Assembly (NCBI RefSeq): GCF_053078305.1
Contig: NZ_CP166879.1
DNA: 64,000 nt
Strand: one strand, 5' to 3'
A program made the translations under genes and the position numbers. Below, piece after piece: positions 1 to 59,105 of this stretch; the first letter of the stretch is position 1, and each line of letters opens with the position of its first letter. Below the pieces are notes generated by a model that made no database searches, was not told the DNA's origin, and saw only the letters and a list, made by a program, of their open reading frames with translations.

Positions 1-834
1 GAACCGGTGGTGGTGCCTCTTTCAGTCCGTGGCAGCAGTACGGTACAACCCGGGGCACCGGTATCCGGGATCCGGTCTGAAGTACCGGAGTGTCAACCGG
101 ATACGGATACAGAGGCGATGCCGGAAAGCACAGTCTCCATATTCCCCGGTACTGAGCGCGAGCAACATGGTATTACCCGGCCACTGAAAGCCGTGTCTGA
201 TACTGACACAGAGCGCACTGAAAAATGCAGTCGACCTTCTCAGGAAGAGAGCGCAGGCAGGGGGGACAGTGGGGCGTCTTCTGCTGAAAATGCCCTGCGT
301 CCTGAGATACAGCCGGATATGTACGGTGGTAAGCCAGTCTTCAGTGGTGATGTTATGGAAGATGGTGCTGCCGGAGCAGTACTGGCATCAGTTATGACAG
401 GAGATACTGCTCCGGGAACCACTGATGCTCTTCCCGCGTCGGTGACGCACTTTGCTGTGGGGCGGGATGATATCGAACATCTGCAGAATGAAGCGTTCCG
501 TCTGGCCTGGGAACTGGCTGAATCAGCCGGTTGTGCTGAAGAGATTGCCATGGACAGGGAAAGCGACCTGTCTGCCGGTTTCGGGGCAACAGTGGAGAAA
601 TGTTCTCCTGTAGTGGCGTTTCTGGCGGGTCTGGCCGGTGATGCACCGCGGACAGTCCTCCCCGTGAGTCTGAAAGACCTGCTTACAGGGGGCAGTGCAC
701 CGGAAGCGTGGCCACTGCTGGATGACGACCATGCCGTGAAGCTGCTGCGTCTTCTGAGTGTGCTGCGCCGCCTGAGAGCCCTGCAGCGCAGTGTATTACC
801 CGACGACGATGAGGGGGATGAGAATGATGAGTGA
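1..834 (+). CDS. hypothetical protein, 5' end probably truncated by window edge
   Basis: Frame 1 is open from position 1 with no upstream stop; ORF track reports 7..834 from the first GTG. Acidic C-terminus. No recognisable motif. Confidence 0.45.
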   Translation, partial: EPVVVPLSVRGSSTVQPGAPVSGIRSEVPECQPDTDTEAMPESTVSIFPGTEREQHGITRPLKAVSDTDTERTEKCSRPSQEESAGRGDSGASSAENALRPEIQPDMYGGKPVFSGDVMEDGAAGAVLASVMTGDTAPGTTDALPASVTHFAVGRDDIEHLQNEAFRLAWELAESAGCAEEIAMDRESDLSAGFGATVEKCSPVVAFLAGLAGDAPRTVLPVSLKDLLTGGSAPEAWPLLDDDHAVKLLRLLSVLRRLRALQRSVLPDDDEGDENDE

Positions 835-1552
835 TATGTCGCATCAGGAACGTCTGATCAGGCGGGTCAGGAAACTGCTGGAGCTGAGCCGTAATAACAG
901 CAATGCCCATGAGGCCGGGCTGGCGCTTGCAAGGGCGCAACAGCTGATGGCGAAACACGGTATCACGGAGCAGGATGCCGGACTTTCTTCGGTGCAGACC
1001 TCTTCATCACAGGGGGCACCTTCTGATGCTGAAAAAGTTCCGGCGTGGATGTTTCGTCTGGTCATGGTGGTGACACAGACATTTGGCTGCCGGGCGTATT
1101 ACGACTGGCGGGCGGTGCCCGGAGGCCGGTATCGCCGGTGTGTGACGTTTTACGGTTTCAGTGAACGTCCTCAGGTGGCGGCTTATGCGTTTGATGTTCT
1201 GTGCCGTCAGCTAAGGGAAGCAACGGATGCGTATCTTCGTACACAGAGCCGGAGACTGAAACTGAGCACCCGTCGTGCCCGGGCGGCTCAGTTTCGTGAT
1301 GGCTGGGTTCAGGGGATTCGTCAGGTGGTGATGCCATTCAGTGTGACAGAAGAGGAAAGTCGGCTGATGCGTCTCTGGATGGAGCAGCAGGATATGGTGA
1401 CGGTGGACTCCCGTGAGATGAAAGCCTGTCGCGGCGGTGACCTGGCCCGCTGGCAGGGGTATGAGGCCGGGAAAAATGCCTCACTGCATCATGGTGTGGG
1501 GGAGAGTGCCCGACAGGTGGTGCCGGGTCTGATGATACGGGAGGCGTCATGA
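824..1552 (+). CDS. hypothetical protein with N-terminal helical domain resembling DUF2786
   Basis: ORF 791..1552; internal ATG at 824 follows a GAGGGGG RBS. N-terminal RKLLELS..NAHEAGLALARAQQLMAKHGI pattern typical of DUF2786-type proteins. Overlaps upstream gene, suggesting coupling. Confidence 0.5.
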   Translation: MMSDMSHQERLIRRVRKLLELSRNNSNAHEAGLALARAQQLMAKHGITEQDAGLSSVQTSSSQGAPSDAEKVPAWMFRLVMVVTQTFGCRAYYDWRAVPGGRYRRCVTFYGFSERPQVAAYAFDVLCRQLREATDAYLRTQSRRLKLSTRRARAAQFRDGWVQGIRQVVMPFSVTEEESRLMRLWMEQQDMVTVDSREMKACRGGDLARWQGYEAGKNASLHHGVGESARQVVPGLMIREAS

Positions 1553-2157
1553 ATAACAGCTTGTCTCAGGCAACCAACGGTCTGCTGATGCAACTGGTGA
1601 TGGACCTCAAGAGCGGCTACCTGCGTCGCTGCGAATCTCTGGGGCTGGCCCGGGAGGAAATGCAGATGCTGCAGGGACTGACCATTGAGGAAATTCATTA
1701 CCTGTCAAACTCTGAAGTGTCGGTTATCCGGCTGGACATTAATCATGAAAACCTGCTGCGTATGCTGCAGCAGGCCCGGACGGAGCAGAAACGTCTGCAG
1801 CGCATTGACCGGGCACTGGCGCTGGGAGGCTCCATTGAACTGATGGCGTTTTACTTTGGACTTTCCAGTGTGGATGTGGCAGCGCGCCGTCGCATTGCCG
1901 GTATTGATGTTCGCCCGGGACGTGGCATCACACTGAGTGATGAGGAAAGTGCAGAGCTGTGGCGTTTATGGCAGAAGAGCGGCATCACAGATGTGGAAAG
2001 TGCGGACGGACTGGATGTCATGATGCTGGCAGCTGAGCAAATGAATATCCCGCTGACGGCGGTATGGCATGCAGTGAGGGGATGGCATCAGGGAACTGCG
2101 GGGTTTAATGATGTATCGGCCAGTCGCCGGAAACTGAACCGGGAAAAAGCAGAATGA
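1549..2157 (+). CDS. hypothetical ICE replication-region protein (possibly STY4526/DUF2857-like)
   Basis: 202-aa ORF with 4-bp overlap to upstream gene, same strand as STY4528-like gene downstream. Family assignment from memory, unverified. Confidence 0.45.
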   Translation: MNNSLSQATNGLLMQLVMDLKSGYLRRCESLGLAREEMQMLQGLTIEEIHYLSNSEVSVIRLDINHENLLRMLQQARTEQKRLQRIDRALALGGSIELMAFYFGLSSVDVAARRRIAGIDVRPGRGITLSDEESAELWRLWQKSGITDVESADGLDVMMLAAEQMNIPLTAVWHAVRGWHQGTAGFNDVSASRRKLNREKAE

Positions 2158-3995: not shown

Positions 3996-4571
3996 ATGAC
4001 ATTACCCGTAGACAGCCTGATTGCGTACACGCTGGAAAAAATGCAAGAGCGGATAGTGCAGAAAGGCCGACAACAGGACGGAAAAATACAAAGCGGACTG
4101 CTGTTTACCGGAAATGTGCATGATGCCATTCCGCGTCGACTGCTTCTGGATACTCGACTTTCTCCGCTGGATAAGATGGCGTGGATGATGATTCGGCTGT
4201 ATGCACAGAATAATGAAGGTGCAGTTTTCCCCACATATGACGAACTGCAACTGCAGCTTGCTTCCCCGGGGAAAGGAAAAGCCTCCAGGGAGACTGTCAG
4301 CCGGGTGCTGCTGATGCTGCGGATCACGGGCTGGCTGAGTCTGTGCAAACGGGTGCGTGATGAGAAAGGGCGGGTACGGGGCAATATTTATGCCCAGCAC
4401 GATGAACCGGTGACGTGCCGGGATGCTGAAATACTGGATCCACGTTATCTGGATATGGTGGCAGATGCCTGTATGAGCCGGAACCGGACCATAAGTCAGA
4501 CGGCCCGGGATATTCTGTGCGAAATAAAAAATGATCCGGGGATGCGTCATTATCACAGCCATATCAGTTAA
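3996..4571 (+). CDS. STY4528-family pathogenicity-island replication protein-like (putative winged-helix DNA-binding)
   Basis: 191-aa ORF; recognised by similarity of sequence pattern and position to the SPI-7 STY4528 family. Followed immediately by a palindromic motif array. Confidence 0.5.
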   Translation: MTLPVDSLIAYTLEKMQERIVQKGRQQDGKIQSGLLFTGNVHDAIPRRLLLDTRLSPLDKMAWMMIRLYAQNNEGAVFPTYDELQLQLASPGKGKASRETVSRVLLMLRITGWLSLCKRVRDEKGRVRGNIYAQHDEPVTCRDAEILDPRYLDMVADACMSRNRTISQTARDILCEIKNDPGMRHYHSHIS

Positions 4572-4650
4572 CTGGAAGCCCGGATAGGGAGTGCCCAGAC
4601 ACCGGGACAGATGGCGGCCCGTCAGCGGGTGACTGAGGACCGAATGCAGC

Positions 4651-4862
4651 CGGGTTCGGAAACCGAACCGGGGGTAGAAACACAGAGTTCGGTATTGAAA
4701 ATGCTGAGTTCGGATTCCGAACTCAGTGAAAAACAGGGGCAAAAAATACTGAGTTCGGATTCCGAACCATCAGAAAAATCAGAAGGTTATCACAGAGTTC
4801 GGAAACCGAACCATTACGTACGTAATATCACACACAGTGTGATTAAAAACACGTACGTATTG
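4651..4862. promoter_or_regulatory. array of palindromic GTTCGGA(A/T)(A/T)CCGAAC motifs plus adjacent perfect palindromes; candidate operator/origin
   Basis: Palindromes at about 4654-4668, 4706-4724, 4751-4768, 4795-4812, a half-site near 4685-4692, then TTACGTACGTAA (4814-4825) and ATCACACACAGTGTGAT (4827-4843). Lies between the STY4528-like gene and the RBS-supported start at 4905. Confidence 0.45.
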
Positions 4863-4904
4863 CCTGAAGCGCTGACAGGGCAAATCAGGGAGGAGGAGGC
4901 CATT

Positions 4905-5240
4905 ATGCTGACCAGTCAGTTGCAGGCGCTGCCGGAAGAACTGGCGCAGGGGGTTCTGGAAAGTCTGTCAGGGATGCTGGGCAGCCACTCGCTGCAGAAT
5001 CCTGTGGGCTGGTTGCTTGCAGTGCTGAAGCGAGCCCGGGAGGGAAATTTTTATCCGCCGAAGCAGAAACAACGTGTTGTTGTGCCAGCCTCCGTACTGG
5101 CAGGAGAAAGGGGGCGAGCTACTGCGCAATCAGTTTCATCGGGGAAACGTACGGAACCGATTTCAGCAGAACGTCTGAGTGGCATTGTGGCTGGATTACG
5201 GGCCTCGCTGCGCAGATGTTCTGCGATGAGACCTGAGTGA
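4905..5240 (+). CDS. hypothetical protein
   Basis: ORF track 4611..5240; the internal ATG at 4905 follows a very strong GGGAGGAGGAGG RBS, and the upstream part of the ORF is filled with palindromic repeats, so I take that part as non-coding. Confidence 0.45.
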   Translation: MLTSQLQALPEELAQGVLESLSGMLGSHSLQNPVGWLLAVLKRAREGNFYPPKQKQRVVVPASVLAGERGRATAQSVSSGKRTEPISAERLSGIVAGLRASLRRCSAMRPE

Positions 5241-5339: not shown

Positions 5340-5582
5340 GTGGTAAATAGCATGCAGAAATACAAACAGGAAAGTCTGAGTGCAGCCATGAAAGAAAGTG
5401 GCCTGTTGATCGCTAAAATTTGTGCCTGCGTGATTGCCGGAGTGGTGGTTATCTGGGGACTGGTGACAGGCACAGAGACCCTGCTCACTGCGCTGAAAAC
5501 AATGCACGAACAGTACGATAACAGTATGTGTTATATCGTATGTGCCACAGGGTGGTTTTTCCTGGTGTTAAGTAACTGGCTG
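5340..5582 (+). pseudogene. N-terminal fragment of a membrane-protein gene interrupted by IS66-family insertion
   Basis: GTG 5340 ORF reads into the IS end at 5583. The same frame resumes exactly after the target-site duplication at 8104 and continues to 8352. Confidence 0.6.
5575..5582. repeat. left 8-bp target-site duplication (ACTGGCTG) of IS66-family element
   Basis: ACTGGCTG immediately left of the IS end matches ACTGGCTG at 8096-8103 immediately right of the other end. Confidence 0.8.
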
Positions 5583-5612
5583 GTAAGCGTCAACGGAGCA
5601 CCGTATTGACGC

Positions 5613-7205
5613 TTATTTATTGGTGAGTACTACGTTCCATGGCAAGAGTTCATCAACTCGGTTGGAAGGCCATTCCGGCAGTACGCTCAGGATATGGCGC
5701 AGATACGCTTCCGGATCGATACCGTTCAGACGGCAGGTGCCGATCAGCCCGTACAACAGTGCTCCACGCTCGCCGCCGTGATCGCTGCCAAAGAACATAA
5801 AGTTTTTCTTTCCGAGACAGACTGCACGAAGCGCTCTTTCCGCAGCATTATTATCCGCCTCCGCCAGACCGTCATCACTGTAATAACAGAGGGCATCCCA
5901 CTGATTCAGTACATAGCTGAACGCTTCGCCCAGTCTGGATTTTTTCGACAGCGTACCATTCTTCTCCACCATCCATTCATGCAGCGACGTCAGTAACACT
6001 TTGCTTCGCTGCTGCCTGACGGAAAGACGCTCTGACTCCGGTAATCCCCGTATTTCATCCTCGATGGCGTACAGTTCACTGATTCGCTTCAGGGCTTCTT
6101 CTGCCTTCGCACTTTTGCTGCTGATGTATACATCGTGGATTTTTCGCCGGGCATGGGCCCAGCACGCAACTTCTGTCAGTGCACCACCTTCACGTTCTGC
6201 ACTGAACAACCTGTCGTAACCTGTGAACGCATCCGCCTGCAGGATACCCCGGAAGGGGCGGAGGTGTTGCTCCGGGTGTTTCCCCTGCCGGTTCGGCGAG
6301 TACGCGAACCAGACCGCTGGAGGAGATGACGAACCCACATTGCGATCATCCCGGACATACGTCCAGATACGCCCTGTTTTCGCCTTTTTCTGACCCGGTG
6401 CCAGTACCTTTACCGGTGTGTCATCAGTGTGAACCTTGCGGGTGTTCATTACATAACGGTACAGGGCATCATTCACCGGTGTCATTAACTGGCAGCACGC
6501 GTCAACCCAGTTGGAGAGTAAGGCCCGGCTCAGTTCGACACCCTTGCGGGCAAAGATTTCACTCTGACGATACAGTGGCAGATGTTCGCAGTATTTTCCC
6601 GTTAACACGCGGGCAAGTAATCCGGGGCCCGCGATACCACGCTCTATCGGGCGGGACGGCGCCGGTGCTTCAACGATGCAGTCACATTTTGTACAGGCTT
6701 TTTTTACCCGTTCTGTGCGGATCACTTTCAGGGCGCTGCTCACCAGTTCCAGTTGTTCTGCACTGACTTCCCCCAGATAATCCAGCTCACCGCCACACTC
6801 CGGGCAACAGCTTTCTTCAGACTCCAGACGGTGTATTTCACGGGGAAGGTGTGCCGGTAACGGACGACGATGGCGCGACTGTCGCAACTGGCGGGGAACC
6901 TGTGGATCGTCTTCCCGCCCACTGTAACGATCGCTGTCCTGTTCGCGTTGTTTCAGCAGGGCCTCAGCCTGTTCAACTTCACGACGCAGTTTTTCAGAAC
7001 GGGTACCGAACAGCATCCGGCGCAGTTTTTCTATCTGAGCCCGCAGATGTTCTATTTCCCGTTCATCTTCTTCGATCTTTTCTTCGGCACGTGCCAGTGC
7101 AGAGCGCAGGAAGGCCTCCGTCTCTTCAACCAGACTCAGTTGCTGGTCTTTCTGACGGAGCTGGCTTTCCAGTTCTGCAATGCGAATGAGGTATTTCTGA
7201 CTCAT
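5613..7205 (-). CDS. tnpC: IS66-family transposase (TnpC / Orf3)
   Basis: 530-aa ORF with N-terminal leucine-zipper-like coiled coil, CPECGGE zinc-finger motif and the conserved IS66 transposase core. Confidence 0.9.
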   Translation of the reverse strand: MSQKYLIRIAELESQLRQKDQQLSLVEETEAFLRSALARAEEKIEEDEREIEHLRAQIEKLRRMLFGTRSEKLRREVEQAEALLKQREQDSDRYSGREDDPQVPRQLRQSRHRRPLPAHLPREIHRLESEESCCPECGGELDYLGEVSAEQLELVSSALKVIRTERVKKACTKCDCIVEAPAPSRPIERGIAGPGLLARVLTGKYCEHLPLYRQSEIFARKGVELSRALLSNWVDACCQLMTPVNDALYRYVMNTRKVHTDDTPVKVLAPGQKKAKTGRIWTYVRDDRNVGSSSPPAVWFAYSPNRQGKHPEQHLRPFRGILQADAFTGYDRLFSAEREGGALTEVACWAHARRKIHDVYISSKSAKAEEALKRISELYAIEDEIRGLPESERLSVRQQRSKVLLTSLHEWMVEKNGTLSKKSRLGEAFSYVLNQWDALCYYSDDGLAEADNNAAERALRAVCLGKKNFMFFGSDHGGERGALLYGLIGTCRLNGIDPEAYLRHILSVLPEWPSNRVDELLPWNVVLTNK

Positions 7206-7235
7206 GACCGTTTTTATAATGCGGTCAGGATTTTT

Positions 7236-7586
7236 TTACAACATTGTCAGTGAGTTACGGCGGGATGTTTTTGGCTGACGCCAGTCCAGCTTATCGAGGA
7301 GCATTGCCAGTTGCGAGCGGGTAATGGATACCTTGCCGTCACGTACCGCAGGCCAGATAAACTGGCCTTCCTCCAGGCGTTTAGTGAACAGGCACAGACC
7401 ATCAGCATCAGCCCAAAGAATTTTAACGGTGTCACCCCGTCGGCCACGGAAGATAAACAGGTGACCGGAGAAGGGATTATCATTCAGCACATGTTGTACC
7501 TGTTCTCCCAGTCCGTTGAAGGATTTACGCATATCGGTAACGCCGGCAACGAGCCAGATACGGGTACCTGATGGGAGTGAGATCAT
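7236..7586 (-). CDS. tnpB: IS66-family accessory protein TnpB (Orf2)
   Basis: 116-aa ORF typical of IS66 Orf2, 4-bp overlap with tnpA. Confidence 0.85.
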   Translation of the reverse strand: MISLPSGTRIWLVAGVTDMRKSFNGLGEQVQHVLNDNPFSGHLFIFRGRRGDTVKILWADADGLCLFTKRLEEGQFIWPAVRDGKVSITRSQLAMLLDKLDWRQPKTSRRNSLTML

Positions 7587-8008
7587 CTTCCCCTCCCGGT
7601 CAGTTCACGGATCAACACCGTGAGCAGCTCTGGCGATGGATTTTCCAGCGTCATGTTACCGTGACGGAATTCCACCTTGCAGGAGCTGGCACTGACTCTG
7701 GTCTGAGAGGTAGTGGATAAAGATGGCGCAATGGCCACCACAGGTTCTTTCTGCTCATCCGGCGTTATTTCTACAGGTAATAATTCAACGCCAGTGTCAG
7801 AAGAGGTCGTTACCGGAAGACGCCGCGAAACACGCCCTTCGTTCTGCCAGAGCCTGAGCCATTTGAACAGGAGGTTATCATTGATATCGTGTTCCCGGGC
7901 GATACGGGCAACAGAGGCTCCTGGTTGCAAAGCCAGTTTAACCATTTGAAGTTTAAAATTATTTGAAAATGATCTGCGGGGTTCTGCGGATAATGTTTTT
8001 TGCTCCAT
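7583..8008 (-). CDS. tnpA: IS66-family TnpA (Orf1), helix-turn-helix protein
   Basis: 141-aa ORF at the 5' end of the IS66 operon; N-terminal HTH-like region. Confidence 0.8.
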   Translation of the reverse strand: MEQKTLSAEPRRSFSNNFKLQMVKLALQPGASVARIAREHDINDNLLFKWLRLWQNEGRVSRRLPVTTSSDTGVELLPVEITPDEQKEPVVAIAPSLSTTSQTRVSASSCKVEFRHGNMTLENPSPELLTVLIRELTGRGR

Positions 8009-8095
8009 AACAGGCGTCCACTAGTTTGAAAAGGTGGGCACCTACGTTACCAATACTGGCTTAATGGCTACATACGGCAGTCGGTTTACGCTTAC

Positions 8096-8103
8096 ACTGG
8101 CTG
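8096..8103. repeat. right 8-bp target-site duplication (ACTGGCTG) of IS66-family element
   Basis: Identical to 5575-5582. Confidence 0.8.
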
Positions 8104-8352
8104 TGGATCACATACAGTCTTTATAAAGCGCGTACAGGCAGTACAGTCGGAGGGGGCCTGCAATTTATGCTCCTCCTGAGTCTGCTGGCAGAATGCTTTT
8201 CATTTTTTGTGATTTTCTGGTCATTGTCTCATCTGGATATAACCGACATTCAGTTGCTCGTGATGGGGATAACAACATTAATGCTGTTTTTGTCTCTGAA
8301 CGTTAAGGTAGTAGTCATCATTAACCATGTTGCCAGTGGCAACAGTGATTAA
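8104..8352 (+). pseudogene. C-terminal fragment of the IS66-interrupted membrane-protein gene
   Basis: In frame with 5340..5582 once the IS and one TSD copy are removed; hydrophobic sequence (ORF track 8167..8352 is its tail). Its 3' end runs into the first unit of the tandem palindrome array. Confidence 0.5.
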
Positions 8353-9120
8353 AAAGCGAGCGGTGTTGCCAGTGGCAACAGAGTACAGAAAATAGTCAAT
8401 GGTGCCAGTGGCACCAGAGTACAAAAAATACTCAATGGTGCCAGTGGCACCATAGTATAAAAAATAGCCAATGGTGCCAGTGGTACCAGAGTACAAAAAA
8501 TAGCCAATGGTGCCAGTGGCACCAGAGTACAAAAAATAGCCAATGGTGCCAGTGGCACCATAGTATAAAAAATAGCCAATGGTGCCAGTGGCACCAGAGT
8601 ACAAAAAATAGCCAATGGTGCCAGTGGCACCAGAGTACAAAAAATAGCCAATGGTGCCAGTGGCACCATAGTATAAAAAATAGCCAATGGTGCCAGTGGC
8701 ACCAGAGTACAAAAAATAGCCAATGGTGCCAGTGGCACCATAGTATAAAAAATAGCCAATGGTGCCAGTGGCACCAGAGTACAAAAAATAGCCAATGGTG
8801 CCAGTGGCACCATAGTATAAAAAATAGCCAATGGTGCCAGTGGCAACAGAGTACAGAAAATAGTCAATGGTGCCAGTGGCACCAGAGTACAAAAAATAGT
8901 CAATGGTGCCAGTGGCACCATAGTATAAAAAATAGCCAATGGTGCCAGTGGCAGCAGAGGTTAAAAAGCGAACAGTGCAGCCAGTGGCAGCAGAGGTTAA
9001 AAAGTGAACAGTGCTGCCAGTGGCAGCAGAGATTAAAAAATGAGCAGTGCTGCCAGTGGCAACAGAGGTTAAAAAGTGAGCGGTGTTGCCAGTGGCAACA
9101 GCGATTAAAAAATAAGCGGC
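8329..9120. repeat. tandem array of about 22 units of 36-37 bp, each with a 15-bp palindrome G(G/T/C)TGCCAGTGGCA(C/A/G)C; candidate centromere-like or iteron array
   Basis: Central about 16 units near-identical, alternating two variants (72-bp higher-order period). Flanking units diverged, with GTTGCCAGTGGCAAC and GCTGCCAGTGGCAGC cores. Confidence 0.85.
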
Positions 9121-9216
9121 GTTAAATGTATATTCTGCCTGATTTGTTTTTTTGTTGTCGGTAATACGCAACCTGCGGACTATCTTCTGGTCATGAAATC
9201 ATTCGGAGTAAACACA

Positions 9217-9921
9217 ATGCCCCAGGAGAAAACCGGAGAAGTCAGAAAATCAGAACAAGTTGGTGCTCTGCAGTCATCGCTGACTATTGCCCTTCATACC
9301 CGATATGCGATCCGTCTCTGGGAGGGACGCAGGAATAATCAGAAGGAAGAAAAACAGGAAAAGCGGCCTGACATCATCAGTATGCCCAGGGCTATTGCGT
9401 TTGCGGGTCAGGCAACCAGAGATTCAGCCAGGGATAATCCTTATGCAGATATGATGTTAGTCAGGCTGGAAAATGCCCTGACGAAGGCAACTGAAACAAT
9501 TGAAAAGCATCTTGCGTGGCTTGACGGGATCCTTAAAAACCTGCCGGGACAGATCTCCCTTTCTGATATTAAATCCTCTTCGCCGGTAAATATTGGCGTG
9601 TACAGTAGTTCTCCGGTCGGTTATCGATGTGTATGGCTTCTGATCGGATATGATCGACTGGTCATGAAGGTATTTCAGGTATTTCATTACGGACTTATTT
9701 CCCGCACAAAACGGGATGAGTTGCTGAATCAGGGAGGGTATGCGGTACGCAGGATTTACGGGATTATTCAAAATTATAAATCAGTCAGTGTTACACGTGC
9801 TGATATTTTGTCCGGCACAGCCCGTGGAAAGGAGGCGGTTAACCGCATGGGGGAGCCGGATCCTGACGTGATGAGCGGTAAGAAACGTTCTGTTTATTCA
9901 CCACCGGTTAAAGCGGGGTGA
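9217..9921 (+). CDS. hypothetical ICE backbone protein
   Basis: ORF track 9193..9921; ATG 9217 preceded by GGAG RBS. 4-bp overlap with topB. Confidence 0.5.
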   Translation: MPQEKTGEVRKSEQVGALQSSLTIALHTRYAIRLWEGRRNNQKEEKQEKRPDIISMPRAIAFAGQATRDSARDNPYADMMLVRLENALTKATETIEKHLAWLDGILKNLPGQISLSDIKSSSPVNIGVYSSSPVGYRCVWLLIGYDRLVMKVFQVFHYGLISRTKRDELLNQGGYAVRRIYGIIQNYKSVSVTRADILSGTARGKEAVNRMGEPDPDVMSGKKRSVYSPPVKAG

Positions 9922-9923
9922 GT

Positions 9924-11966
9924 ATGCAACTCTTTCTGTGTGAAAAACCTTCTCAGGCGAAAGATATCGCCCGTGAACTGGCGCTCAGTAAGCGGGGCGA
10001 CGGATACATCGGAGATGACAATATTGCTGTCACCTGGGCGATAGGACACCTGCTGGAACTGGCTGAGCCGGAAGCTTACGGTGAACAGTTCGGTTCCCCA
10101 TGGCGTTCTGATGTGTTGCCGCTGATACCGGAACAATGGCAGATGGTGGTGAAGCCGAAGGTGAAAAAACAACTTATTGTGATCCGGGGGCTGTTAAAAC
10201 GCGCTTCTGAAGTGGTTATTGCCACAGATGCCGATCGTGAAGGAGAAGTGATAGCCAGAGAGTTGCTGGAGTACTGTCAGTACAGAGGGCGTGTCAGGCG
10301 TCTGTGGTTATCTGCACTGGATGAGGCCAGTATCAGGAAGGCGCTGAATAATATTCTCCCGGGCGAACAGACTGCGCTTCTCAGTGAAGCCGGTAAGGGG
10401 CGTGCCCGGGCTGACTGGCTGACAGGGATGAATCTGACCCGGTTGTATACCCTGAAGGCACGGGAACGTGGAATTTCTGGGGTTTTGTCAGTGGGCCGGG
10501 TGCAGACACCCACGCTGGCAATGGTGGTCAGACGGGATCAGGAGATCGCCACATTTGTGCCGGTTTCCTGGTGGCAGGTGATTGTCTGGCTGGAAAAGGA
10601 GGGGCTCCGTTTCCGCAGTAACTGGGTGGCAGCTGAGCAGTACTGCGATGATGAGGGACGTTGTGTGAATGTGCAGGCGGCCGGTGCTGTTCTCGGTCTG
10701 TGCCGTCAGCAGTCCTCTGCTGTTGTACAGGATGTTGTACAGAAGAGGGAGAAAACACCGCCACCTTTGTGTTTTTCGCTGGGAACGTTGCAGGACGCCT
10801 GTTCCCGGAAGTTTGGCATGGGGGCTCAGACCGTTCTGGATATCGCACAGTCCCTTTATGAGACTCACAAAGCAACAACTTATCCCAGGACAGACTGTGG
10901 TTATCTGCCTGCCTCGATGCATGAGGAGAGTTCTGAAGTGCTTGAGGCTGTCGGGCGTTCAGATCCGTCCGTGCTTCCACAACTGGCTGAACTGGAATCA
11001 GGACGGGTATCCCGTATCTGGAATGATAAAAAAATTACGGCTCACCATGCCATTATTCCGACCCGGCAGTTTTTTGACCTCAGCTTACTGAACGGTGATG
11101 AACTGAAGGTATATCAACTGATTCGTCAGCACTATCTGGCACAGTTTCTGCCGGAGCAGGAAGCCGATGTTACTGAGGCAACATTTGTGATTGGGGGGCA
11201 GTTATTCCGTTCCCGCGGAAGAGTGAATGTGATTATCGGGTGGAAACAGTTATTTCCACCGGAAAATCATGCAGATGAAGAAAAGCCTGACAGTGATGAA
11301 AGTGGAAACATATTGCCCCCTTTGATAAAGGGAGAACTCTGTGCTCTGGATGGTGCTGAACAGAAGGAGCTGAAAACCGTACCTCCCCGTCCTTTTACTG
11401 AAGGCAGTCTTATTACTGCGATGAAGAATGCTTCGTCTGGTGTAACGGATCCGGTGCTGAAAAAGATCCTGAGGGATAATGCGGGACTGGGAACGGAAGC
11501 CACACGCGCGGGGATCCTGGAAACGTTATTTGCGCGCAACTATATTGAGAGAGCGGGAAAACATATCCGTTCCACGCAACTGGGAAGAGAACTGGTGGCG
11601 GCATTGCCGGACTCTCTGACAAATCCGGGTATGACGGCTTTATGGGAACAGGCGCTGGATGATGTTGCCCGGGGGAAAATCTCACTGGAGGCGTTTATGG
11701 AGAAACAGCATCAGTGGATCAGGCACCTGGTGTTATCCGGACGTAACCAGACGGTTAATCTGTCAGTGGAATCAGGTCCTTCATGTCCACTCTGTAACGG
11801 TCCGACGGTGAAACGGAAGGGAAAAAGCGGTTTTTTCTGGGGATGCTCCCGTTATCCCGACTGCAGGGGAATTGCTGGTGAGCAGGGAAACAGCAGGGGC
11901 AGGAAAAGAAAAATTAATTTTTCTCATAAACAAAAATCTGGTGATGTCGGAGACAAACTGAATTAA
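9924..11966 (+). CDS. topB: DNA topoisomerase III
   Basis: MQLFLCEKPSQA start typical of TopB, Toprim and topoisomerase IA core, C-terminal zinc ribbon CPLCNGP...CSRYPDC. Standard ICE backbone gene. Confidence 0.9.
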   Translation: MQLFLCEKPSQAKDIARELALSKRGDGYIGDDNIAVTWAIGHLLELAEPEAYGEQFGSPWRSDVLPLIPEQWQMVVKPKVKKQLIVIRGLLKRASEVVIATDADREGEVIARELLEYCQYRGRVRRLWLSALDEASIRKALNNILPGEQTALLSEAGKGRARADWLTGMNLTRLYTLKARERGISGVLSVGRVQTPTLAMVVRRDQEIATFVPVSWWQVIVWLEKEGLRFRSNWVAAEQYCDDEGRCVNVQAAGAVLGLCRQQSSAVVQDVVQKREKTPPPLCFSLGTLQDACSRKFGMGAQTVLDIAQSLYETHKATTYPRTDCGYLPASMHEESSEVLEAVGRSDPSVLPQLAELESGRVSRIWNDKKITAHHAIIPTRQFFDLSLLNGDELKVYQLIRQHYLAQFLPEQEADVTEATFVIGGQLFRSRGRVNVIIGWKQLFPPENHADEEKPDSDESGNILPPLIKGELCALDGAEQKELKTVPPRPFTEGSLITAMKNASSGVTDPVLKKILRDNAGLGTEATRAGILETLFARNYIERAGKHIRSTQLGRELVAALPDSLTNPGMTALWEQALDDVARGKISLEAFMEKQHQWIRHLVLSGRNQTVNLSVESGPSCPLCNGPTVKRKGKSGFFWGCSRYPDCRGIAGEQGNSRGRKRKINFSHKQKSGDVGDKLN

Positions 11967-12232: not shown

Positions 12233-12528
12233 GTCGCTCCGGCGACCACCAATGCTCCACAAGTGGCCTGAGAGGAGCGCCTTCGGGTGGCTACATGTCG
12301 CTTCGGCGACCACCAATGCTCCATAAGTGGTCTGAGAGGAGCGCCTTCGGGTGACCACATCCCGCTTCGGTGGGCACCAATGTTCCGTTGATCTGAGAGG
12401 AACGCCTTCGGGTGATCAACACCCCCGTAACCTGAAAGGGGATGTGCAGCCAGGATGTTTCTGGTGGTGGTAAATCTGCCCACCTTTGAGAGCAGATATC
12501 GTCAGTCATGACGATGAAGGTTTTCTTT
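12233..12528 (+). repeat. structured repeat element, copy 1 (three about 60-nt sub-units plus tail); candidate ncRNA
   Basis: Repeated hairpins with CTTCGG tetraloop motifs (GTCGC-TTCG-GCGAC etc.) and recurring CTGAGAGGA motifs. Near-identical to copies at 56604-56840 and 58871-59105. Confidence 0.5.
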
Positions 12529-33151: not shown

Positions 33152-33601
33152 ATGCTGAAAAAAACAATTCTGGCGTTATGTATTTCCGCACCATTTCTGG
33201 TTGCGGGCTGTGATGATGCGACAAAGGAGAATGTAAGTAAGAAGGCGGCAGATATAAAGGAAGCTGCGCAGACTCAACTCAGTGATGTGAAGGATGCCGC
33301 GGAGGAAGTGAAAATGCAGGCTGTCGGAAAGGTGGCAGAGGTTTCTGAAGCGGCTCAGTCCGGGCTCAGCGAGGTGAAGGATGCCGTGGAGGAAGTGAAA
33401 ACACAGGCAGCCGGAAAGGTGGCAGAGGTCTCTGAAGCGGCTCAGTCCGGGCTCAGCGAGGTGAAGGATGCCGTGGAGGAAGTAAAAACACAGGCAGCCA
33501 GAAAGGTGGCAGAGGTCTCTGAAGCGACTCAGTCCGGTCTCAGTGATGTGAAGGATACCGCTCCTGAAAAGGGGGCTGAAATATCCGTAACGGAGGAGTA
33601 A
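33152..33601 (+). CDS. lipoprotein with tandem internal repeats
   Basis: ORF track 33140..33601; ATG 33152 after GAGAG RBS; lipobox LVAGC. Three tandem copies of an about 20-aa (60-bp) unit AEVSEAAQSGLSEVKDAVEEVKTQAAGKV. Confidence 0.6.
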   Translation: MLKKTILALCISAPFLVAGCDDATKENVSKKAADIKEAAQTQLSDVKDAAEEVKMQAVGKVAEVSEAAQSGLSEVKDAVEEVKTQAAGKVAEVSEAAQSGLSEVKDAVEEVKTQAARKVAEVSEATQSGLSDVKDTAPEKGAEISVTEE

Positions 33602-56444: not shown

Positions 56445-56603
56445 TTATCTCAGAATAAACATTGATGAATGGTAATAACAGGGACTGTTAATACTGTCCC
56501 TGTTATTTTTTCTGCAGACTGTTTTCTGTTCTTCCTGGTTATGTTCTGAGTGATGATGATTGACGCCTTTTATACGCTCTGATATGCTCAGAATGCATTA
56601 TCT

Positions 56604-56840
56604 GTCGCTTCGGCGACCACCAATGCTCCATAAGTGGTCTGAGAGGAGCGCCTTCGGGTGGCCACATCCCGCTTCGGTGGGCACCAATGTTCCGTTGATC
56701 TGAGAGGAACGCCTTCGGGTGATCAACACCCCCGTAACCTGAAAGGGGATGTGCAGCCAGGATGTTTCTGGTGGTGGTAAATCTGCCCACCTTTGAGAGC
56801 AGATATCGTCAGTCATGATGATGAAGGTTTCTTTTAACCG
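56604..56840 (+). repeat. structured repeat element, copy 2; left direct repeat flanking the recombinase module
   Basis: Near-identical to 58871-59105 and to the last two sub-units plus tail of 12233-12528; the similarity continues about 20 bp past the element. Confidence 0.55.
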
Positions 56841-57467
56841 CGCCCTTTATTACGGGCAATACACAGCAGTGGTTGTGTGATCCTTATCTATCCGGTGATG
56901 CCGGAATGTTTTTACTGCGTAATGGCGGTATTGACTTCTTTTATTCTTTTCATTTGTTTGCCAGCACTTCCTGCGACTGTGCGCGCTGTATAAGACCATT
57001 TGAAATTTGGTCGCTTACGCGTGTACCTGGCGTCTGAAGCTGCGCGGCGTCACTTTCGTCAGCGTGTCACGATGACAAAGTGACGCACGCGCGTCTGCTT
57101 AACGAACCCGCACGAACTGCCGTTTCACGTGATGTTTTTTAACATTTGAAGAAGTGACCCGGCGTGAGAGTGTTTTTTCAACCTCTTCTGCAAATTTACG
57201 GACGATTTTGTGAATAACGTCCATAAATGGTTTTTTGCAGAATTAATTGTTTTTTAAGGAGTTTTATGTAGTGAGATGCCGAATCGGCGATACCACTTAT
57301 TAGAGGTGGTGTCGGGGGCGACCTGGAGACAGGTACAGCAAATGCTGCAGTCGGTGTGCAACACCGATTTGTTACCCCTCAATACCTAAACAATCTGCGC
57401 TACCCTGGCGCACAGGCAGTCACTACCCGAAGGATCGCAACGTTTAACCGTGTCGTCAGGGAGAAAT

Positions 57468-58826: not shown

Positions 58827-58870
58827 CTTGACATTCATCTTTTGTGATTTAAAAATATACAGGCTTATAT

Positions 58871-59105
58871 GTCGCTTCGGCGACCACCAATGCTCCATAA
58901 GTGGTCTGAGAGGAGCGCCTTCGGGTGACCACATCCCGCTTCGGTGGGCACCAATGTTCCGTTGATCTGAGAGGAACGCCTTCGGGTGATCAACACCCCC
59001 GTAACCTGAAAGGGGATGTGCAGCCAGGATGTTTCTGGTGGTGGTAAATCTGCCCACCTTTGAGAGCAGATATCGTCAGTCATGACGATGAAGGTTTCTT
59101 TATAA
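58871..59105 (+). repeat. structured repeat element, copy 3; right direct repeat flanking the recombinase module
   Basis: Near-identical to 56604-56840. Confidence 0.55.

Follow-up and report, generated by a model that had tools for sequence, protein, structure and literature searches.

A tandem array of 22 palindrome-bearing units of 36 bp lies at 8329-9120 of a 64,000-nucleotide stretch of E. coli DNA (contig NZ_CP166879.1, assembly GCF_053078305.1; the whole stretch is called the window below), between a gene of the STY4528 family and a gene of the PFL_4669/AcaB family. The window is part of a decayed integrative and conjugative element (ICE) of the SPI-7/PFGI-1/pKLC102/ICEclc family. Sequence comparisons across this family lead us to favour, by a modest degree, the reading that the array is a tandemly amplified parS-like cluster, equivalent to bisS of ICEclc, and that its palindromes are the predicted loading sites for the BisD-type ParB-CTP clamp of the ICE. 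This reading is drawn from the GNTR and ENELR motifs and the ParB fold of the element's ParB-like protein, from the position of a bisS-like site in an ICEclc-type locus, and from the way in which, in a comparison chosen once the data had been inspected, two residues of the protein track the inner bases of the palindrome in unrelated lineages. A link between BisD/bisS and such arrays is unpublished as far as the literature searched shows, where the two papers that name BisD or bisS do not treat these arrays. The kind of array has itself been known since 2004-2009 as the 'oriV' (vegetative origin) repeat region of pKLC102 and PFGI-1, to which the window array corresponds in position when the sequences are compared; new here is an E. 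coli array with a 36-bp unit in 22 copies.

Anatomy of the array

8329..9120, no strand: tandem array, 22 x 36 bp (in-register parsing and Tandem Repeats Finder)

Parsed in register, the array consists of 22 head-to-tail units, each exactly 36 bp long (21 of 21 spacings at 36 bp), and Tandem Repeats Finder detects 20.8 copies of a 36-bp period in a single array (8367-9114), at 91% matches and with 0% indels. The tandem array proposed in the initial annotation is thus confirmed, with its 36-bp units; the 37-bp units allowed beside them do not occur. Each unit is made of a 17-bp odd palindrome with a single central base, TGnTGCCAGTGGCAnCA, and an A-rich spacer of two forms, gATTAAAAA for the edge units and AGTAcAAAAAATAGCC for the central units. 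The perfect 17-mer TGGTGCCAGTGGCACCA is present in 13 of the 22 units, TGTTGCCAGTGGCAACA in three and TGCTGCCAGTGGCAGCA in one, and the remaining units are one-base or hybrid variants such as GGTGCCAGTGGTACC at about 8473. Units 3-17 are near-identical, with two alternating spacer subtypes (..CCAGAGTACAAAAAATAGCC.. and ..CCATAGTATAAAAAATAGCC..), and units 1-2 and 18-22 are diverged and carry TGTTGCC..GGCAACA, TGCTGCC..GGCAGCA or hybrids of these. No further copy of the family motif was found elsewhere in the 64-kb window, so that the array is far beyond chance.

Among the E. coli strains compared (L081, L082, L083, L084 (E. coli OkiPb01677, 29-2296)), the array has 14, 14, 20, 22 (the window), 28 and at least 63 units; arm position 3/15 is the only place at which the dominant units of the strains differ. 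Given this spread of copy number and the strain-specific dominant unit, the homogeneity of the central units looks like recent amplification. Upkeep of uniformity by a sequence-specific binding protein, to which it had initially been ascribed, is therefore not required.

Two minus-strand open reading frames (ORFs) span the array (8278-9171 and 8349-8939), and RefSeq calls on the E. coli arrays include an 813-aa 'beta strand repeat-containing protein', a 'saposin' and hypothetical proteins. That a repeat protein of this sort is encoded across the array has next to no chance of being right. The 36-bp period is a multiple of three and both minus-strand frames are open, but strand, length and name of the called ORF vary between close relatives (on the related element SGI-4, the array is annotated in RefSeq as a plus-strand hypothetical coding sequence), units of 35 and 37 bp occur in CH4811, a near-identical E. 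coli element, other relatives have periods of 46, 106, 107 and 118 bp, and the conserved thing is a DNA palindrome, not a peptide. Since strand, frame and period are not conserved, the coding reading was rejected, and the RefSeq protein calls across the arrays are spurious; the initial annotation was right to treat the minus-strand ORFs as artefacts. No excess of sigma-70 promoters was found within the array, and the minus-strand terminator-like matches there consist of the palindrome and the T-run of the spacer. A sigma-54 promoter, prompted by TGGCAC in the palindrome, was rejected for its unsuitable spacing.

A BisD-like protein and a bisS-like site

BisD of ICEclc is a 550-aa ParB-like CTP clamp, the loading of which at bisS has been shown by chromatin immunoprecipitation sequencing, focus formation and CTPase stimulation; from bisS it spreads about 50 kb, the way the ICE is transcribed, and 11 promoters of ICEclc are activated by BisD and BisC jointly (Antar et al., 2025; PMC12409273). 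The bisS sites are two 23-bp odd palindromes, GAGCTATCCCCnGGGGATAGCTC, about 2 kb apart, and a candidate bisS-3, CTTCGGAtTCCGAAG, in orf96323 showed no BisD binding; in ICEclc, BisD is seen above all as a sliding transcription co-activator, with its role in partition doubted (PMC12409273).

The ParB-like protein of the E. coli ICE carries GNTR and ENELR motifs identical to G92NTR95 and E136NELR140 of BisD. For further comparison, the proteins of an ICEclc-type plasmid locus (L080) stand in for ICEclc BisD and BisC, and the full-length E. coli protein is 33% identical to its L080 counterpart over the whole length, the C-terminal part included. An AlphaFold2 model of the E. coli protein (pLDDT 87) matches structures of Noc, KorB and ParB at probability 1.0 and has a helix-turn-helix (HTH) at residues 165-194. 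No Pfam match was obtained, a PDB sequence search with the single protein was empty, and a PDB search with a profile gave weak KorB/ParB matches only. Judged from the alignments and the model, the protein is a BisD homologue with a predicted ParB/Noc/KorB fold.

The gene content of L080 also corresponds to that of ICEclc: its ParB-family gene to bisD, its DUF2857 gene to bisC, its STY4528-family gene to orf96323 and its PFL_4669 gene (9010-9798) to the position of inrR, the place that the PFL_4669 gene occupies in the window element as well. At 122 bp upstream of the L080 PFL_4669 gene lies a bisS-like site, CCTATCCCCAGGGGATAGC, with one mismatch to the published bisS core. Like the sites of the array, bisS is a perfect palindrome of odd length with one central base, and its place, like that of the array, is at the inrR/PFL_4669 gene or a short way upstream of it, where the run of co-directional ICE core genes begins. 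ICEclc BisD shares with the E. coli protein the identical GNTR/ENELR motifs, the three-part architecture and a BisC/DUF2857 partner.

In sopC, the centromere of the F plasmid, the ParB-family protein SopB binds an inverted repeat that is present in each of 12 repeats of 43 bp. The window array has the same layout of tandem direct repeats with one inverted repeat each, fit for a dimer, and a ParB-family protein and ParA are likewise encoded in one element. It differs in that its sequence is unrelated, that parA of its element is adjacent neither to the parB-like gene nor to the array, and that the ParB-like protein has an activator domain in addition to what SopB has. The analogy with sopC, made in the initial annotation, agrees with the reading favoured here, and the array of protein sites inside an ICE of the pKLC102/SPI-7 family that it foresaw is borne out, with a ParB-family gene and an STY4528-family gene both present in the element. 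Of the suggested partition site, the ParB-type site is the part that the favoured reading keeps; the likely reader is a BisD-type protein, not a proven partition protein.

Palindromes of the family

A scan of representative genomes yielded 71 loci around PFL_4669 homologues, most of which have a three-part layout upstream of the PFL_4669 gene. First come three or four GTTCGGAnnCCGAAC sites and second one TTCACACAnnGTGTGAA site (in most of the 71 loci). Third, there are 1-7 copies of a variable 17-bp palindrome, TGyTGnnn-n-nnnCArCA, followed by gATTAAAAA, at spacings of 36, 72 or 108 bp. In the Enterobacterales elements the proximal palindrome lies 134-200 bp before the PFL_4669 start codon, and TGnTGnnn-n-nnnCAnCA is found between the STY4528-family and PFL_4669 genes at 43 Enterobacterales ICE loci, with palindromes at the same position in pKLC102, SGI-4, a Stutzerimonas plasmid and ICEHin1056. 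Since a single site is found in many relatives, the 22 units of the window represent an expansion.

The closest in plan is SGI-4 (pSGI4, NZ_CP061046), which has the same 36-bp unit (palindrome plus gGTcAAAAAG), position and gene neighbourhood and a PFL_4669 protein 59% identical to that of the window; it differs in having 11 units (11.4 x 36 bp) and the palindrome TGCTGGCACTGCCAGCA, with inner GGCA, not GCCA. In ICEHin1056 of Haemophilus (L079 6000-6124) there are three TGTAAAGGGGCTTTACA+AAGTACAAA sites, spaced at 36/72 bp. A spacing quantum of 36 bp and a spacer motif after the palindromes, AAGTACAAAAA, are common to elements of Haemophilus, Duffyella and E. coli (L079, L076 and the window array), and both are absent from the Pseudomonas arrays; the shared quantum and motif may reflect a second bound factor or a bend.

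Across relatives the copy number runs from 1 to at least 63, and a neutral minisatellite, in which slippage or unequal crossing-over has multiplied one ancestral functional site into further, inert copies, would account for that range, for the near-identical central units as signs of recent amplification, and for an array in a decayed ICE. We regard it as very improbable as a full explanation: large arrays came about independently in Pseudomonas (unit of 57 bp) and in Salmonella and E. coli (unit of 36 bp), the palindromes of the units have stayed perfect and the 36-bp quantum fixed, and the idea is compatible with the other readings and leaves the role of the founding site still to be explained.

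Among 58 distinct palindromes, 94.8% of arm cells are complementary, as against 70.5% in shuffles, and changes on both sides occur at 8 of 8 arm positions. Such compensatory change, together with symmetric variants coexisting within one array or element, could point to hairpins or cruciforms, for instance in the transferred single strand, that serve the single-stranded DNA-binding protein (SSB), topoisomerase III or the helicase as signals for priming or recognition, with pairing selected rather than sequence. A structural element would also account for the symmetric change at position 3/15, otherwise unexplained; the neighbouring ssb and topB genes act on single-stranded DNA, and STAXI motifs, suspected structured nucleic acids too, lie nearby. 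It is nevertheless quite unlikely, as the stems are no longer than 8 bp, conservation of the outer bases TG.TG/CA.CA extends to their sequence and not just to their pairing, wobble-type mismatches show no strand bias among the listed variants, and symmetry is equally expected of a site bound by a dimer. Palindrome symmetry can also be kept by quasi-palindrome template switching.

Possible covariation of protein and site

Two ICEs co-resident in Serratia marcescens 106R (L018 and L021) are 94-99% identical in DNA outside four segments: the part coding for residues about 48-250 of the ParB-like protein (67-80%), the array (unalignable), a stretch upstream of parA (L018 1501-1800) and, after ssb, a piece of coding sequence (L018 15301-15600). 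Such a distribution of differences resembles a switch of recognition specificity between elements that share one cell. More widely, residues 208-209 of the ParB-like protein, which follow 'GLG' at the start of the post-HTH helix, track the inner palindrome bases, [RK]P going with (C/A)CA, [RK]H with CCC and [ATS]P with GCA. The combination of [RK]H with CCC is seen in four unrelated lineages (Erwinia, Pectobacterium, an Enterobacteriaceae metagenome-assembled genome and the Pseudomonas ICEclc type), and the ParB-like protein of SGI-4 reads GLGAPQ, compared with GLGRPQ in the E. coli element. Cluster-collapsed Fisher tests gave p = 7e-5 and 1.3e-3 for this column, which was picked after data inspection. 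Furthermore, pKLC102 and the E. coli element have a common palindrome and a common 'PVSH' start of the recognition helix, although their N-terminal ParB/HTH regions are no more than 48% identical.

Other proteins of the element fare differently. The STY4528 N-domains of L018 and L019 are only 0.5% different, yet the palindromes differ; the AcaB-like proteins of L018 and L021 are 99.1% identical with palindromes that differ at three positions per arm, and those of L007, L008 and L009 are 95-96% identical and face three different palindromes. Near-identity despite different palindromes argues against either protein as the specificity determinant. It bears directly on the possibility that the array is an operator through which the downstream AcaB-family (InrR-like) regulator, of ribbon-helix-helix type, autoregulates an acaB-topB operon. 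The place is apt, with the last unit ending 72 bp before the PFL_4669 gene, the proximal site 134-200 bp upstream in relatives and the site cluster unique to the promoter-proximal region; the match of the PFL_4669 gene to Pfam AcaB (E 1.9e-81) spans the whole gene, and AcaB of IncC is a DNA-binding activator structurally similar to the ribbon-helix-helix superfamily. Apart from the near-identical AcaB-like proteins facing different palindromes, however, E. coli strains with an identical AcaB-like protein differ in dominant unit, and no column of this protein could be separated from phylogeny, so we judge the operator reading unlikely.

Several observations count against the array as a set of loading sites for the BisD homologue. 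ICEclc bisS comprises two single 23-bp sites of unrelated sequence, whereas the window has 22 tandem 17-bp sites, and binding results within the family are confined to ICEclc. No second bisS-like site was found after ssb, the position of bisS-2 in ICEclc, in the window or in the Serratia elements, where the divergent segment after ssb is coding sequence. The residue 208/209 rule was chosen post hoc and has two exceptions (L049 and L066); in an unbiased within-clade scan, ParB columns 189, 200, 208 and 182 rank 9th-21st of 1400, and linkage is possible because columns of DnaB and DUF2857 rank as high. No convincing signal emerged for any of ten backbone proteins, ParB included, when these were compared with palindrome distance by Mantel tests, and per-column mutual information, raw or permutation-scaled, was dominated by column entropy and phylogeny. 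The HTH regions of L049 and L063 are near-identical and their palindromes differ, and the symmetric variation at arm position 3/15 within one element is not explained by a simple base-reading model. Finally, amplification as such may be neutral, since a single site is all that many relatives have.

Genes around the array

The features of the window on which the comparisons draw are as follows.

1..834, + strand: BisD-like 'ParB family' gene, 3' part (577 aa when complete; tblastn 99% identity to the CH4811 protein)
791..1552, + strand: DUF2786-domain gene (100% identical to the CH4811 protein so annotated)
1549..2157, + strand: DUF2857 gene, encoding a BisC-like partner for the ParB-like protein (34% identity, E 7e-32, with the product of the DUF2857 gene next after the BisD-like gene in L080)
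3996..5240, + strand: STY4528-family 'replication protein' pseudogene (both halves match NCBIfam NF040582; the alignment was made with the gene of CH4811, which is intact)
4654..4811, no strand: four copies of the palindrome GTTCGGAWWCCGAAC inside the STY4528 gene (8 strand-hits; 0 of 100 shuffles reach this)
4836..4858, no strand: single conserved palindrome TCACACACAGTGTGA, then TTAAAAAC (same relative place in most relatives)
5343..5582, + strand: membrane-like gene of 159 aa, 5' part, specific to the E. coli element (split by an insertion sequence, IS)
5583..8095, - strand: IS66-family (ISEc23-like) insertion (8-bp target duplication ACTGGCTG)
8096..8352, + strand: 159-aa gene, 3' part (stop codon within array unit 1)
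9193..9921, + strand: PFL_4669 / TIGR03761 gene (full-length Pfam AcaB match, E 1.9e-81)
9918..11966, + strand: gene for DNA topoisomerase III (the long genes of the co-directional transfer/maintenance block begin with it)

The window starts inside the ParB-like gene, of which the N-terminal ParB/HTH part is cut off. The complete order can be read in CH4811: int, parA, dnaB-PI, the ParB family protein gene (577 aa), DUF2786, DUF2857 and several small genes, then XF1762, the STY4528-family 'replication protein', the 159-aa gene, the array and the PFL_4669-family gene, and finally topoisomerase III, STY4534, ssb and the pilus and type IV secretion genes. All genes of this block are co-directional. 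parA lies about 11 kb upstream of the array, beside int, and dnaB separates it from the parB-like gene. In the window the STY4528 gene has a premature stop (CAA -> TAA at 4569-4571), and this nonsense codon and the IS66-family element splitting the 159-aa gene mark the window ICE copy as decayed.

AcaB is a conjugation activator of IncC, and no joint mention of InrR and AcaB was found in the literature searched. TprA of PAPI-1 was considered as the PFL_4669 protein and rejected, TprA being a small Arc-like protein beside NdpA2.

Several other repeats and motifs occur downstream. Three STAXI RNA motifs (RF01728) lie at 12360-12525, 56603-56768 and 58870-59035, all on the + strand (76-94 bits against a gathering threshold of 40.5), and one EFASI motif (RF02957) at 57268-57425 on the + strand. 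The first STAXI copy overlaps a 64-bp tandem repeat (12233-12415), which lies between topB and the STY4534 gene in a non-coding gap that is conserved. An 87-bp tandem repeat at 33278-33560 (3.3 copies, 92% matches) is probably within a coding gene of the transfer region.

The oriV label and the companion palindromes

Klockgether and co-workers reportedly postulated in 2004 an oriV of pKLC102 with about 16 repeats of 57 bp. Tandem Repeats Finder places a pKLC102 array of 15.2 x 57 bp exactly between the STY4528-family and PFL_4669 genes, and its unit core, TGGTGCCACTGGCACCA, equals the window palindrome TGGTGCCAGTGGCACCA save for the centre base. Like the window array, it has a homogeneous centre and diverged edges with symmetric variants, and pKLC102 and PFGI-1 share with the window an upstream companion cluster of four GTTCGGAnnCCGAAC-type palindromes. 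In contrast to the GC-rich units of pKLC102 (57 bp) and PFGI-1 (46 bp), the window unit is 36 bp long with an A-rich spacer motif, in an E. coli host. The 'putative oriV' of PFGI-1 lies directly upstream of PFL_4669 and consists of four 23-bp palindromes and then four 46-bp repeats with an inverted repeat (Mavrodi et al., 2009; PMC2647930), a similar iteron-like region has been stated for ICEHin1056, pKLC102, SPI-7 and PAPI-1 (Juhas et al.; PMC2258188), and a review of clone C still calls the pKLC102 origin 'postulated' (PMC7685784). A functional test of the oriV label was not found in the literature searched; judged from these papers, the label of the published arrays was read from sequence.

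In a vegetative origin, the palindromes would be iteron-like sites at which an STY4528-family initiator binds, melts the DNA and loads the ICE's DnaB-type helicase. Besides the label itself, which has been putative or postulated since 2004 for pKLC102, PFGI-1, ICEHin1056 and SPI-7 (PMC2647930; PMC2258188; PMC7685784), this would fit a pKLC102 copy number of up to 30 per chromosome (PMC7685784), a block around the array that encodes DnaB-PI, SSB, topoisomerase and two proteins named 'replication protein' by NCBI, and the existence of plasmid records of this backbone without a typed replicon (pSGI4, a Citrobacter plasmid and a Stutzerimonas plasmid). The N-domain of STY4528, for which neither a Pfam nor a PDB sequence match was obtained, is modelled as a winged helix, and its best structural matches, to Geobacillus primosomal DnaB(1-300) (E 0.03) and RctB domain 1 (E 0.75), also count in favour, but these matches are weak. 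The recognition element is moreover a perfect palindrome spaced at 36-57 bp, not a direct repeat of about 17-22 bp. Around the array there is no good DnaA box (two one-mismatch matches only) and no AT-rich unwinding stretch (AT 50-63%), many relatives possess a single site, STY4528 is nearly identical across different palindromes (L018 and L019), and in the window STY4528 is a pseudogene while the array is still intact and large. A link of ICEclc replication in transfer-competent cells to oriT and the relaxase has been reported. An origin at the array is therefore, in our estimate, rather unlikely, and the iteron set considered in the initial annotation found no positive support.

The companion sites may be more relevant to STY4528. 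The GTTCGGAWWCCGAAC motif is conserved from Enterobacterales to Pseudomonas PFGI-1, where it forms the 'oriV first half', and resembles the ICEclc candidate bisS-3. The STY4528 N-domain is strongly conserved as well (64-82% identity), and the GTTCGGAWWCCGAAC cluster may be where the conserved STY4528 protein, with its predicted winged helix, binds. On conservation, the conserved GTTCGGAWWCCGAAC sites appear to pair better with the conserved STY4528 N-domain, and the variable HTH of the ParB-like protein with the variable array palindrome. Should the element possess a vegetative origin, the GTTCGGAWWCCGAAC cluster would be the first place to look.

A possible mode of action

From the reading of the array as an amplified bisS-type cluster, we infer binding, clamp loading, sliding and an effect of copy number as follows. 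The 577-aa ParB-like protein, in which a CTP-binding ParB domain at the N-terminus is followed by an HTH, a long linker and a helical domain at the C-terminus, would bind each 17-bp palindrome as a dimer through its HTH. The palindrome would trigger CTP-dependent closure of the dimer into a clamp, and the clamps would slide from the array into the downstream co-directional block (the acaB/inrR-like gene, topB, ssb, and the pilus and type IV secretion genes), where they would switch on transfer promoters together with the DUF2857 (BisC-like) partner. The ParB-bound array may double as a centromere for the ICE's ParA in the excised element. More units could mean a higher loading rate or a larger complex, and the number of units would shift fast through unequal recombination or slippage.

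A broader proposal can be made only tentatively and is less probable than the bisS-type reading of the window array alone. It holds that the 'origins' of the pKLC102/SPI-7/SGI-4 type are amplified loading platforms for a transcription-activating ParB-CTP clamp, that a code between residues 208/209 and the inner palindrome bases sets element-specific recognition groups, and that copy number (1 to at least 63) tunes ICE switch-on, partition and interference with a co-resident relative.

Implications for the ICE family

ICEs of the SPI-7/pKLC102/ICEclc family are vehicles for the spread of genes for virulence and for resistance to metals and antibiotics in Pseudomonas, Salmonella, Haemophilus and E. 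coli, and annotation pipelines currently turn arrays of this kind into spurious proteins. If the array is indeed the docking site for a master activator clamp, the annotations 'oriV' and 'replication protein' in this family would need to be revisited. The site and the two specificity residues would then offer a direct handle to predict cross-activation and interference between ICEs, and array length would be a measurable, fast-evolving variable for transfer frequency.

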